Positions 28,274 through 31,745 of a DNA stretch of 64,000 bases are shown here, in pieces. Position 1 is the first letter of the stretch, and each line of letters starts with the position of its first letter. The notes under the pieces are model-generated. The model searched no databases. It was not told where the DNA came from and saw only the letters and a list, made by a program, of their open reading frames with translations. The stretch covers positions 1,550,001 through 1,614,000 of the forward strand of contig NW_027117341.1 in NCBI RefSeq assembly GCF_038025025.1. Reading direction: 5' to 3'. Position numbers and translations under genes: made by a program. Source of the stretch: Phyllosticta citribraziliensis (Eukaryota).

Positions 28274-29107
28274 CTACGCCGCCACGGGCTCAGGCTCGGG
28301 CTTGGGCTCAGGGGCAGCCTCACGCTTCTCCGTCTCCTTGTAGTCGCCGTATGAAGCGTAGGGGTTGTAGGAGCCGTACTCATCGCGCTTCTGCTCAACC
28401 GGAGCAGCATCTGCAGCGCGCTTCTCCTTGTAGCTGCCGTAGGATGCGTACGGGTTGTACGAGCCGTACTCATCCCTCTTCTCCCCGGGGTAGTTGTCGT
28501 ACTTGCCGTAGGGGCTGTACGAGCCGTACTCGTCCCTCTTCCCGACGGGAGCCCTCTTCTCGGGATAGTTCTTGTATTCGCCGTAGCCTTCGTACGGGCT
28601 GTAAGACCCGTAGTCGCCATCCCTCTTCTCGACGGCGCGCTTCTTCTCAGGGTAGTCGCCGTAGCTGGCATAGGGATTGTAGCTCCCGTACTCGTCCCGC
28701 TTCTCAACGGCCCGCTTCTCCTCCGGATAGTCGCCATAACTTGCGTATGGGTTGTAGCTGCCGTACTCGTCCCTTTTTTGGATCGCGCGCTTCTTCTCCG
28801 GATAGTCGCCATAGCTGGCGTACGGGTTGTAGCTGCCATATTCATCTCGCTTCTCGACGGCCCGCTTCTTCTCAGGGTAGTCGCCGTAGCTGGCGTACGG
28901 GTTGTAGCTGCCGTATTCGTCCCTCTTCTCGATGGCACGTCGAACCTTCTCCGGATATTCTCCATAGCTTGCGTATGGGTTGTAGCTGCCGTACTCATCC
29001 CTCTTTTCGACAGCGGGGACGGGCTCGCGCGTGTCGAGCGGAGCGGCGACGACGCTGGTGATGGAGCCGAGAGCCATGAGGCCCACAACGACTTTGACAA
29101 GAGCCAT
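28274..29107 (-). CDS. Kex2-processed repeat protein; putative dikaritin-type RiPP precursor (277 aa, 9 Tyr-rich cores)
   Basis: Hydrophobic signal peptide MALVKVVVGLMALGSITSVVAA, then nine repeats of DEYGSYNPYASYGDYP-like cores, each bounded by KR/RR. Adjacent DUF3328 gene. Confidence 0.92.
   Translation of the reverse strand: MALVKVVVGLMALGSITSVVAAPLDTREPVPAVEKRDEYGSYNPYASYGEYPEKVRRAIEKRDEYGSYNPYASYGDYPEKKRAVEKRDEYGSYNPYASYGDYPEKKRAIQKRDEYGSYNPYASYGDYPEEKRAVEKRDEYGSYNPYASYGDYPEKKRAVEKRDGDYGSYSPYEGYGEYKNYPEKRAPVGKRDEYGSYSPYGKYDNYPGEKRDEYGSYNPYASYGSYKEKRAADAAPVEQKRDEYGSYNPYASYGDYKETEKREAAPEPKPEPEPVAA
28322..28999 (-). repeat. Coding tandem repeat, ~75-nt unit x9
   Basis: Core starts at 28999, 28921, 28846, 28771, 28696 and 28621 (78 then 75-nt spacing), followed by three more variable units. 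Confidence 0.95.
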
Positions 29108-29218
29108 GGCGAGCGTTTGGACCAAAAGATTGAAAGAGCTGAGTGACAGACAGAGAGAGTTGGAACCTTCAGAGGTGGTTGCTTGCTCTGACCAGGCCAT
29201 ATGAAGGAAGTGACATGG

Positions 29219-29226
29219 TTTTATAT
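29219..29226 (-). promoter_or_regulatory. Putative TATA box of the RiPP precursor gene
   Basis: ATATAAAA on the minus strand about 115 nt upstream of the ATG at 29107. Confidence 0.5.
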
Positions 29227-30667
29227 CCTCGCCGTCCGGGCGTTTTGGCCTGTCCCTCGAAGCAGCAGCGCGACCACATGGTCTCAACGGAAGCCCCGAC
29301 TCCCTCTCCAAGCAGCCCCTCACGATCCTCCATCTCCGCTTACGGCGTTGCTTTCAAAGAGTCTCGGTGTAAGCACGCTCGCTCGAGTCTGCAAGTTTGA
29401 TGCCTGCCTGAAAAGTTTGGTCAGCGAGCTGGCTGGCGTCTCTGGAATGTAACGCTTCAAAAGCACAAGCTGCACAAGGGAACCTCTCAGATACAAGCGG
29501 CGGCGTGGGCCAAGGAAGCAGTCCCACGTATGCAGTGTGTCTCGATTCCTCGAGCCTCGGCACTGCCGCACTCCACGCGCCTCCTCCGCCATGCTCCGGA
29601 AATACCTACACAGATGGTGTCGTTTCTTGAGGCTGTGCGACGCCCGGCGAGCTCCTTCGTCAGGCTGATCAGTCGCTCGTACCTCTCAGAGCCCTCGGCC
29701 ATGACTTGACGGCGCTGCCGTCGATGCCGCTGTCTCCGCCACCGACGCGGTAGTGTGTTTTGTGTTAGGTAACTTGGTCGAATCAAACCATGCCAAATCC
29801 GAGGCTCTCGCGTTATATGACATCAAACTTGACCGGGAGGTTCGAGACAAAGAGAAGACTTCGTGGGGGCAGCGTTGTACAAGGCGAAGCCCCCAAACTG
29901 CCTTTTCGGGGAATTGCGCTAATGCAAGCACGCGATTGCTATAGCTTTATTCGAGCTCGTGGTCTCCGTATTTGGGATCATAGGAGGCTTTGTCTGGTGT
30001 TTGCAGGCTTTCAAAGTCCTGCTGCACTATTGAAAGTATTGTCCTTTGGCCTCCGTACCTTGCGAGAATCCCACGTCGAAAATGTTTGCCCTGCCAGTCA
30101 TCAGGACAAATGGCACTCTGTTTGTTTGCGCGGTACTGGGAAGGAGTGCGACTTGACCTGTCAGCTGCTAGGGTCTTTGTAATGCGCAGTATCTTTCCCA
30201 CCTCTTTTCCAAGCGCTTGTTCGAGATGCGGAAGCCTCTTCTGACAGACATCAATAGGCTGAGTTGAGATCCATGCGGTCAGTGCTTGGTGGTCAGCATG
30301 CGAAACGTCATCCCAAAGCCGCGCCAACCACGCACCGAAAACGCCAACGACAATGGCGCCTTTCTAAAATTAGGCGGCCTTCTCTTTCTTTCGGTATTCC
30401 ACCGTGAGCAACGTCGAGGGAGCAGTTTTTCGGGCCTTGGAGGTTGCATTCGGCGAAGTGGGCGTGTGGTTCGACTAACGTGAGGCTGTCCCAGCTGAAG
30501 GCCACAAAGAGGGTACAAGGCCCTCGTCTGTGCTCCCAGAGGTGGGCTGCTGCTGTCGCTGACGACTTTTTGGACCTCGGACGTCTTTCGCGGATGCTTT
30601 TCCTAGTCTTTTGAACCTCCCGCCTGCCAGAAACTTCCTTGTCGCTTGATACAAACGCTCAATTGCA

Positions 30668-31745
30668 ATGCCTGGAAGATACGCGCGACTCAGCACCGAC
30701 GAGGGCAAGGCGGAGGACCACGAGCGCCTTCTCTCGGACGCAGAGAGCTCTCCGGAGATCCAAGACAGGACGAAAAGCTGGTCATTATCTTCCATCGTTG
30801 CATTGTGGGTGGTGACGTTTTGCTTCGCCGGGTTCGTCGGGGCGTGGATAGGGATCCGGCAGTCCAAGCACTCGCAGTCCACGCAGTCCACCATCAGCAA
30901 AATCTCGCAGTACTGTGAGTTGATCAATCCAGACTGGTCCCCGGTCATCTGTCATTGGTACTTACACACGGCAGCTCCAATTGTCGACGATGTCGGAGTC
31001 TACTTCAGCACTGTCCGCTTCAACGGCTCCCTCATGAAGGAAAACATCTTCAGACAAGACGCCAGCCCCGAAGTCGACGCGGCATGGGAGTCCCTGGGCG
31101 TCAACTGTACGACCGCTCCCAGCGTTCCTCCAGCCCAAGCTCTTTCTCGTCAAGACTAACAATGTTTTCCATCAGACCGCGCGCTCGTCGTGCCGCCAGA
31201 AAAGGCGGCCAAGTCCAACCTGCTGCCAGACCAAGTCAAAGTGCGAGAGAAGTACGGCGGCGGCTTCGTCGCCAACGTCGAGGGCATGCACCAGCTGCAC
31301 TGCCTCAACCTGCTGCGCGAGGGGCTCTACTACAACTACGACTACTACAAGGCCAAAGGCGACGGCGCCTGGGTCAACTCGGACCACGTCATCCGGAGGC
31401 ACGTCTGTAAGTACTACACCCACCACAACTCCCACGCCGAGAATAAACACCTGCCGGCAAGTGGCTTTGCTGATTGGTGCCGCCTGGCCGCGCCCAGCCC
31501 ACTGCCTCGACATCATCCGCCAGAACCTCATGTGCAACGTCGACATTGGCGTCCTCGGCCAGGTCTGGGTCCAGTTCGACGACGACGACCCGTTCGCCTA
31601 CGTCGACTTCAACACTAAGCATACGTGCCGCAACTTTGACCAGGTCCGCGAGTGGGCGAAGGAGCACCAGGTGCCTGAGAACGTCCCCGACGACTTCATT
31701 CAGCCGCCCATCGACGGCGACACGATTTTCGATGAGATGCCGTGA
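30668..31745 (+). CDS. DUF3328 / UstYa-family oxidase (4 exons)
   Basis: N-terminal TM anchor, SPEVDAAWESLG, HQLHCLNLLR and (after splicing) HVSHCLDIIRQNLMCNVD, i.e. two HxxHC motifs, then HTCRNFDQVREWA. Introns 30915-30974, 31107-31175 and 31407-31497, all GT-AG and frame-restoring. Confidence 0.95.

Follow-up and report, generated by a model that had tools for sequence, protein, structure and literature searches.

Tyrosine-periodic Kex2-repeat precursor and divergent UstYa-family oxidase of Phyllosticta citribraziliensis: a candidate dikaritin-type two-gene module conserved among filamentous ascomycetes

Introduction

Does a repeat-protein gene that lies head to head with an oxidase gene form a self-contained unit for a modified peptide, and is such a unit peculiar to the fungus in which it is seen? 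This question is raised by a stretch of 64,000 nucleotides (nt) from the leaf-inhabiting, endophytic fungus Phyllosticta citribraziliensis (Botryosphaeriales, Dothideomycetes; contig NW_027117341.1, positions 1,550,001 to 1,614,000), hereafter called the window, in whose own numbering all coordinates are given. Here, a gene for a predicted secreted protein composed of repeats between dibasic sites, the putative precursor, is transcribed divergently from a spliced gene for an oxidase of the UstYa/DUF3328 family. Fungi owe some of their most potent peptide toxins to enzymes of this family, whose copper nature was shown only in 2025, and to our knowledge few DUF3328 products are known. They are described as membrane-anchored, binuclear-copper, O2-dependent enzymes that bind the metal through an HxxHC(x)nHxxHC signature and that hydroxylate, halogenate or cyclise their substrates, including non-ribosomal ones (PMC12435403). 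A survey of 2020 reports 7,878 Kex2-repeat proteins, a DUF3328 gene lying close by in 1,758 cases, and 838 types (PMC7329392). With thousands of catalogued Kex2-repeat/DUF3328 pairs, the kind is already well known; the particular family and its product were not found described.

In our judgement, the locus is probably a two-gene module of the dikaritin type, in which a copper oxidase would modify tyrosine-periodic core peptides that Kex2 releases; that the modification is a cyclisation, and the product of the locus hence cyclic, we infer from the family. What is new here is that, as judged from sequence comparisons, the pair is not lineage-specific but a widely conserved module of two genes.

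Results and discussion

A repeat precursor and a UstYa-family oxidase are encoded head to head

The start codons of the two genes lie 1,560 nt apart, and transcription proceeds divergently. The elements of the pair are listed below (X1, X2 and X3 denote public sequencing runs described further on; ORF, open reading frame).

28274..29107, minus strand: precursor coding sequence, 277 amino acids plus stop (ORF; RNA contigs of X1, X2 and X3; start chosen by alignment)
29042..29107, minus strand: predicted signal peptide, about residues 1-22, ending VVAA/P (cleavage point read from sequence)
28322..28999, minus strand: array of nine KR/RR-bounded units (repeat and dibasic-site analysis)
28937-28999, minus strand: unit 1
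28862-28921, minus strand: unit 2
28787-28846, minus strand: unit 3
28712-28771, minus strand: unit 4
28637-28696, minus strand: unit 5
28553-28621, minus strand: unit 6
28475-28534, minus strand: unit 7
28418-28474, minus strand: unit 8
28322-28384, minus strand: unit 9
29108..30667: divergent intergenic region of 1,560 nt, with the shared promoter region and the 5' untranslated parts of both transcripts
30668..30914, plus strand: oxidase exon 1, encoding the cytosolic tail plus the membrane anchor (residues 38-64 at 30779-30859); PF11807 match, splice joint 30914>30975
30975..31106, plus strand: oxidase exon 2; PF11807 match, splice joint 31106>31176
31176..31406, plus strand: oxidase exon 3, with HQLHC at 31289-31303 and the second motif beginning at 31400; joint 31406>31498
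31498..31745, plus strand: oxidase exon 4, with the end of HVSHC (31400-31505 across intron 3), Cys216, Cys247 and the stop codon

From its N- to its C-terminus, the precursor consists of a hydrophobic N-terminus (residues 1-25, the sole hydrophobic stretch of the protein), a short pro-region ending in KR, the nine units and a tail that is acidic and rich in proline. Seventeen KR/RR sites were counted without overlap, all nine units are flanked by KR or RR on either side, and their trimmed cores comprise 17-21 residues. For these cores in linear form, masses of 1988.76 (the commonest core), 1991.81, 2102.84, 2229.94, 2249.89 and 2451.97 Da were calculated. Of the 277 residues, 46 are tyrosine, and successive tyrosines are spaced by exactly three in 37 of 45 cases. 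At the nucleotide level, Tandem Repeats Finder reports a 75-nt period with 5.2 copies and 80% matches (28620-29011). By sequence, the protein thus has the secretion signal and the repeats flanked by Kex2 sites by which Kex2-processed repeat proteins are described (PMC7329392). Neither the precursor nor four of its relatives matched any Pfam family. A search of the ESM Atlas gave a best score of 0.84 with low recognition and no usable lead, and an exact look-up in a collection of 15 billion proteins found the oxidase but neither of two start variants of the precursor.

The oxidase gene has three introns of 60, 69 and 91 nt, all GT..AG, and its conceptual splicing yields a protein of 285 amino acids that is letter-for-letter the annotated P. 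citribraziliensis protein P0001, named 'tat pathway signal sequence'. PF11807 (UstYa) matches the translations of all four exons colinearly, and the full protein with E 2.7e-62 and 210.9 bits (cut-off 25) over profile positions 5-220 of 220. Together with the two HxxHC motifs (HQLHC from residue 165 and HVSHC from residue 202) and one single hydrophobic segment (residues 38-64), this comprises the features by which the UstYa/DUF3328 family is recognized. The preliminary description of this DNA had proposed a signal-peptide protein of nine KR/RR-bounded repeats, 1.56 kb from a spliced DUF3328 gene with two HxxHC motifs and a membrane anchor; all of these elements were recovered, and the PF11807 search that it suggested came out strongly positive. 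In an alignment of 29 orthologues, all six metal-motif residues of HQLHC and HVSHC as well as Cys216 and Cys247 are invariant, the two latter being compatible with disulfides. The enzyme has a single predicted N-terminal membrane helix and, by analogy to CctR, would expose its catalytic part to the lumen. Indeed, the oxidase resembles CctR and the DUF3328 family in its disordered N-terminal tail, a single membrane helix near residues 38-60, the HxxHC(x)nHxxHC signature on helices and further conserved C-terminal cysteines (PMC12435403). CctR differs in that its substrate is a non-ribosomal cyclic peptide, and the oxidase studied here was compared by sequence and model. Among solved structures, none related to the oxidase was found.

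The core peptide is kept while its codons drift

A core of 15 residues with tyrosine at every third position is common to seven of the nine units. Alignment of these seven revealed that 14 of the 15 positions are invariant at the amino acid level, and that 13 of these 14 are nevertheless written with two to four different codons, serine by both AGY and TCN codons. Summed over the 21 unit pairs, 164 nt differences were counted in codons that keep the residue versus 18 in codons that change it, and all 18 sit at one position of the core. Since the residues are kept while the codons drift, the repeat is old and its peptide sequence is under purifying selection; by these codon counts, it is neither a recent slippage product nor the outcome of chance or of plain compositional bias. 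Comparison of the window with related organisms, for which a sample of 40 of the 467 difference rows was listed, showed 12 of 14 differences in cores to be synonymous as compared to 6 of 11 in leader and spacers.

These data bear on a rival explanation, namely that the tyrosine-rich protein is a secreted structural or adhesive component of wall or matrix, whose tyrosines are cross-linked or hydroxylated by the oxidase on the way to secretion, and that the dibasic sites are minor or incidental. Plant extensins, which are cross-linked by peroxidases, and materials based on dityrosine or 3,4-dihydroxyphenylalanine (DOPA) provide comparisons for such a role. We regard this explanation as unlikely: the strict bounding of every unit of the window by KR/RR on both sides speaks against it, as does the constancy of an exact peptide, beyond mere composition, in the face of codon drift. 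Moreover, a hydrophobicity scan revealed no hydrophobic C-terminal tail in the precursor that would be fit for a glycosylphosphatidylinositol anchor. The wider family, considered below, contributes evidence on both sides.

Both genes of the pair are transcribed

Contigs from the public sequencing runs X1, X2, X3 and X10 were aligned over positions 28100-31900. In a 3,350-nt contig of X2, the three introns predicted for the oxidase gene are all spliced out; all three joints are also present in X3, which derives from a related organism (~93% identity), and two of them (31106>31176 and 31406>31498) in X1, which carries the same organism label as X2. The splicing demonstrates that these contigs are RNA-derived and confirms the gene model. 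The precursor is covered by contigs of the same three runs, X1, X2 and X3. Both genes are expressed together in at least two organisms, which answers the proposed check for co-expression in the affirmative. Contig depth is far greater over the precursor than over the oxidase, albeit such depths cannot rank genes and carry no quantitative claim. The contigs of X10 cover the whole region without splice joints and look like DNA of a relative.

Within the intergenic region, X2 contigs reach to 29407 on the precursor side and start from 30095 on the oxidase side. Since the spliced X2 contig of the oxidase has its start at 30095, the oxidase transcript may possess a 5' untranslated region (UTR) of 570 nt or more within the intergenic region that both genes share. 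The 3' UTR of the precursor transcript contains an intron:

28207..28256, minus strand: 50-nt intron in the precursor 3' UTR (joint 28206>28257 in X1 and X2; GT..AG on the minus strand)

In X3, a different joint was observed in this region (28193>28269, with 29 other letters between). A further RNA contig of X2 (2,826 nt) starts in the coding end of the precursor (to 28667) and extends, judged by its length, ~2.3 kb beyond 28100, into the convergent flavin adenine dinucleotide (FAD) oxidoreductase gene at 25703-27399; the transcripts of this gene and of the precursor may overlap at their 3' ends, or they may have been assembled together.

An alternative in-frame ATG at 29200 would add 31 residues before the signal peptide. 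The start at 29107 was preferred because the hydrophobic N-terminus then aligns from residue 1 with that of a relative from Phyllosticta capitalensis (P0053). In X1, contigs end loosely in adapter sequence at 29166 and 29177, which hints that transcription starts below the upstream ATG (29200); as an X2 contig reaches 29407, and as starts cannot be read from contigs, this evidence is ambiguous. The same Met of P0053 (123 amino acids) that aligns with the precursor start bears on another gene model: the NCBI model P0067 for P. capitalensis (260 amino acids) has ~137 extra N-terminal residues before the signal peptide, an extension that is probably wrong.

The pair is conserved as a two-gene unit

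To find relatives of the precursor, 1.84 billion cluster representatives were searched exhaustively with phmmer (E<=0.001). Eight of the 14 matches, most of them bearing dibasic sites, are secreted proteins with the same tyrosine periodicity. They stem from P. capitalensis (57% identical, with no more than two units), Aspergillus wentii, Zopfia rhizophila, Amylocarpus encephaloides, Exserohilum turcicum and Pyrenophora tritici-repentis as well as from two metagenome sources. The six other matches were set aside as low-complexity or other repeat proteins: P0054 and P0055 are bacterial, P0056 and P0066 contain other repeat types, and P0057 and P0059 were likewise not counted. A word-indexed search at similar lengths returned no match among 2,008 candidates, which is an artefact, as the cluster representative of the nearest relative has 123 amino acids and falls outside the length range.

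A profile search with the oxidase retrieved 820 clusters at E<=1e-20 among 3,231 candidates. The best 120 of these 820 share 45-64% identity over most of their length, except for the window's own protein and those of two other Phyllosticta species (86-100%), and they stem from Dothideomycetes, many Aspergillus and Penicillium species, Leotiomycetes and Lecanoromycetes. The orthologue group thus covers four classes of Pezizomycotina. Public names within it are misleading: besides 'tat pathway signal sequence', 'Cyclochlorotine biosynthesis protein O' occurs in Lasiodiplodia, and a 419-amino-acid model of Aspergillus awamori, perhaps a fusion of two genes, is called 'naringenin,2-oxoglutarate 3-dioxygenase'. 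In A. wentii, the records of the precursor relative and of the UstYa orthologue each give a scaffold of 2,208,148 nt; this is the one named genome in which the check could be made, the other species with precursor relatives being outside the 120 oxidase matches listed.

Genomic context was obtained from fungal metagenome contigs of the Joint Genome Institute (JGI), which were scanned with the oxidase alignment and yielded 80 loci. Thirty-three of these are informative, in that their DNA upstream of the UstYa match measures 2,500 nt or more. A strict test for a partner, requiring a stop-to-stop ORF with Y..Y..Y..Y and a dibasic site, was passed at 22 of the 33, always on the divergent strand and 647-3,023 nt from the UstYa match. 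Relaxed inspection of the remaining 11 revealed pieces of a tyrosine-periodic ORF with signal peptide at the same place in 10, which had failed the strict test because introns split the partner ORFs or because no dibasic site lies within the piece. A secreted, tyrosine-periodic partner on the divergent strand is consequently present at 32 of 33 informative loci, in line with the linkage that the preliminary description had suggested to look for. When near-identical loci were collapsed, 21 of 22 lineages have the partner, and 23 of 24 if five shorter loci are added. Outside of the 4 kb upstream, the strict test gave a single match in a total of 605 kb, a spurious YPLYPL run, and an independent phmmer search of all 8,446 locus ORFs with the precursor produced 23 matches (E<=0.01), all of them among these upstream divergent ORFs.

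The sole locus with ample upstream DNA and no tyrosine-periodic partner (L052; UstYa match at 6589-7403) may represent a paralogue or a lineage that lost the partner. At six loci (L012, L018, L023, L024, L026 and L037) the ORF of the tyrosine-rich partner is fragmented, every piece holding one repeat unit; the appearance is that of one exon per unit and of an identically placed intron in all units. When the window ORFs between 15 and 45 kb were compared to the loci by tblastn, only the oxidase exons (with overlapping frames) and one weak match at a single locus were found. Since nothing but the oxidase and the tyrosine-periodic partner recurs across the loci, the conserved unit consists of exactly two genes.

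This conservation disfavours a further explanation, according to which the precursor yields unmodified, linear secreted peptides resembling hormones or pheromones, and the adjacent oxidase serves another substrate. Known facts can be quoted for it: for most catalogued Kex2-repeat proteins (6,120 of 7,878) a DUF3328 gene is absent from the vicinity, and mating factors are linear peptides (PMC7329392), and the look-alikes in the ESM Atlas include an alpha-factor cluster, albeit at a score of 0.78, below the level that counts. However, the divergent pairing at 32 of 33 loci, while the other neighbours change, is hard to explain without a functional tie. In addition, the ORF scan of the window brought up no other candidate substrate gene and no backbone enzyme nearby. 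We therefore deem it highly improbable that the precursor acts independently of the oxidase.

The partner genes also reveal what is kept within the family. Pooled over all of them, a Tyr-Tyr spacing of three was seen 285 times and the next commonest, a spacing of seven, 21 times, and in 178 of 286 Y-x-x-Y windows the tyrosine is followed by glycine. Within six residues after a tyrosine block, 15 of 23 lineages have a dibasic site, often as KR-E/D-A/P, which is reminiscent of the spacer processed by Kex2 plus dipeptidase in yeast alpha-factor. This arrangement argues against the structural protein considered above; conversely, the Gly/Tyr/Pro-rich composition throughout the family, with poly-proline linkers (GGYGxY...PPPP...), would suit it.

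Neighbouring genes

The surroundings of the pair were examined by a Pfam scan of 246 six-frame ORF translations of at least 100 amino acids across the 64 kb, a size limit that exons of less than 100 codons could escape. No tyrosinase, peptide methyltransferase, cytochrome P450 or second UstYa protein was detected among these translations. Genes recognized in the window encode aconitase, ECM11, a GT4 transferase, a WD40 protein, a carboxylesterase, a DUF3533 protein, CDC45, a reticulon, two short-chain dehydrogenases/reductases, an NSUN2-type RNA methyltransferase, a GH76 protein, a thiolase and a 5'-nucleotidase. Four further features deserve coordinates:

25703-27399, convergent with the precursor: DAO-type FAD oxidoreductase (Pfam)
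22654-23337: piece of an MFS transporter gene (Pfam), not conserved with the pair elsewhere
32222-33475, minus strand: weak GST-like ORF directly downstream of the oxidase (sub-threshold GST_N_2, E 0.0072)
56549-58035, minus strand: subtilase gene (Peptidase_S8 and Inhibitor_I9), 27 kb from the precursor

The GST-like ORF has a long N-terminal part rich in Ser, Thr and Pro, and is not conserved beside the pair elsewhere. The subtilase has no match to the kexin P-domain and is not conserved with the pair either; it is probably an ordinary secreted protease rather than the processing enzyme.

Relation to known fungal and other peptide systems

According to a working definition from recent genome studies, a dikaritin locus combines a DUF3328 gene with a nearby gene whose product has a signal peptide and, between kexin sites, tandem repeats of 10 residues or more (PMC9632046; discussion in PMC12048977). 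This is what the locus contains, which makes it a putative dikaritin cluster: a hydrophobic N-terminus aligned with those of relatives, KR/RR-bounded repeats and a UstYa gene 1,560 nt away. The original five-gene definition (Ding et al., quoted in PMC12048977) in addition names a tyrosinase, a methyltransferase, several DUF3328 proteins and a transporter or peptidase, and the locus falls outside of it: the first three are absent from the 246 ORF translations of the window, and the MFS piece and the subtilase are not conserved with the pair. Clusters described later, such as that of asperipin-2a, are likewise said to do without them (PMC12048977).

The closest parallel is asperipin-2a of Aspergillus flavus, whose cluster consists of aprA (precursor), aprY (DUF3328 oxidase), aprT and aprR. 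Both systems share a secreted Kex2-repeat precursor with several tyrosines per core and a single UstYa-family oxidase, without tyrosinase or methyltransferase, and in asperipin-2a more than one Tyr-to-beta-carbon ether is proposed to be made by one enzyme (PMC6514808). Unlike the asperipin-2a hexapeptide FYYTGY, the core studied here has 15-17 residues with five tyrosines in a strict three-residue register; moreover, just two genes are conserved, with no transporter or reductase kept beside them, and the pair is widespread across classes. The minimal, asperipin-like pathway that had been suggested for the window is borne out, in that none of the tailoring genes sought among the 246 ORF translations and no other conserved neighbour accompanies the pair. 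Ustiloxin, phomopsin and victorin also derive from signal-peptide proteins with repeated, dibasic-bounded cores encoded beside UstYa/DUF3328 genes (PMC7329392, PMC6514808, PMC9632046). Their clusters differ by several DUF3328 genes and cores of 4-6 residues, and in the case of ustiloxin and phomopsin by a tyrosinase and a methyltransferase; the window has none of these extras.

The yeast alpha-factor precursor is similar, too, in that a signal peptide precedes repeated peptides released at KR, and the relatives of the present precursor often have KR-E/D-A/P spacers. Genes of the alpha-factor type, however, are reported to encode linear peptides and, save three exceptions, to have no DUF3328 companion (PMC7329392), whereas the oxidase partner is near constant here. 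BURP cyclases share with DUF3328 enzymes a binuclear-copper nature, with four planar histidines (PMC12435403). The systems in question involve unrelated enzymes and other kingdoms, and offer a possible analogy to the pair rather than membership. Specifically, in bacterial three-residue cyclophane peptides and in the burpitides of plant BURP-domain proteins, repeated aromatic-x-x motifs are linked from side chain to backbone carbon.

Our literature search retrieved no description of a family with tyrosine period three, of strict two-gene conservation, of a product or of the core strings. Within the literature searched, the earlier suggestion of an undescribed peptide family is supported with respect to cores and product; the family itself turned out to be widespread rather than peculiar to this locus, and its kind is catalogued. 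More than 40 types of Aspergillus precursors beside ustYa homologues were reportedly listed by Nagano et al. in 2016, and these may well include Aspergillus members of the present family. In the supplements of the 2020 survey as available, which may be incomplete so that absence is no proof, neither Phyllosticta nor the core strings nor five accessions of four relatives occur (PMC7329392), and the available text of two Phyllosticta genome papers makes no mention of the locus (PMC12506662, PMC9073689).

Proposed mechanism and its standing

In the module that we propose, the precursor would enter the secretory pathway, where the membrane-anchored, lumen-facing binuclear-copper oxidase would act on the tyrosine-periodic cores in the endoplasmic reticulum or the Golgi. 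The likeliest reaction would be the formation of several oxidative ethers joining the side chains of tyrosines to beta-carbons, or of Tyr-Tyr links, between residues three apart; AprY, to which alone the two Tyr-to-beta-carbon ethers of asperipin-2a are ascribed (PMC6514808), would provide a precedent for one enzyme making several links. Kex2 would then cut after KR/RR and a carboxypeptidase trim the basic tail, so that each precursor may give rise to up to nine secreted peptides of 17-21 residues.

A variant of this scheme retains the same two-gene module and dispenses with rings: the oxidase would hydroxylate the cores (Tyr to DOPA, or beta-hydroxylation) or oxidise them otherwise, yielding catechol peptides that bind metal or are redox-active. 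Of the DUF3328 enzymes, the one studied best, CctR, is indeed a C-H hydroxylase (PMC12435403), and five evenly spaced tyrosines beside acidic residues would suit metal binding if oxidised. However, ustiloxin, phomopsin, asperipin-2a and the epichloecyclins are described as products of tyrosine ring closure (PMC6514808, PMC7329392), and we consider the ring-free variant decidedly unlikely.

Several points weigh against a module for cyclised, Kex2-released peptides. Since hydroxylation and halogenation are further activities of DUF3328 enzymes, cyclisation is no more than the most frequent precedent, and product, core modification and Kex2 cleavage are all assigned by precedent from the family. 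In 8 of the 23 lineages, no dibasic site was seen within six residues after the tyrosine block in the ORF pieces; Kex2 processing may therefore not be general in the family. For a gene of secondary metabolism, the oxidase appears unusually conserved, with 45-64% identity across four classes, which resembles a physiological gene, and the housekeeping-type neighbours in the window are as compatible with a structural or physiological role as with a toxin. These last three observations at the same time count in favour of a structural wall or matrix protein. Finally, the AlphaFold2 model of the oxidase monomer, computed from the 29-sequence alignment, is weak and adds little (mean predicted local distance difference test 62, predicted TM-score 0.39; helix from residue 40).

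A bolder version of the two-gene module is possible, though we entertain it only tentatively and consider it doubtful. In this case, the pair would be a strict two-gene UstYa unit, perhaps the oldest and most widespread one in filamentous ascomycetes (kept in Dothideomycetes, Eurotiomycetes, Leotiomycetes and Lecanoromycetes), whose oxidase links tyrosines three residues apart into a fused-ring 'tyrosine ladder'. This product would have a conserved physiological role, for instance in the handling of metals, in the chemistry of wall or surface or in signalling, instead of being a lineage-specific toxin.

Significance

With one precursor and one oxidase, both of which are expressed, the locus provides a very small test system. 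As each core offers five evenly spaced tyrosines, this substrate could show how many and which rings one enzyme closes. The absence of the precursor from the public protein collection suggests that gene callers or genome-mining tools may be missing it. Judged by the distribution of the oxidase, the pair recurs in four classes, including many species of Aspergillus and Penicillium, and one solved product would therefore annotate hundreds of genes that at present go by 'tat pathway signal sequence' or 'hypothetical protein', and would reveal whether the conserved module makes a toxin, a signal or a surface material. If true, a multi-ring tyrosine peptide with a conserved role would be of high significance.

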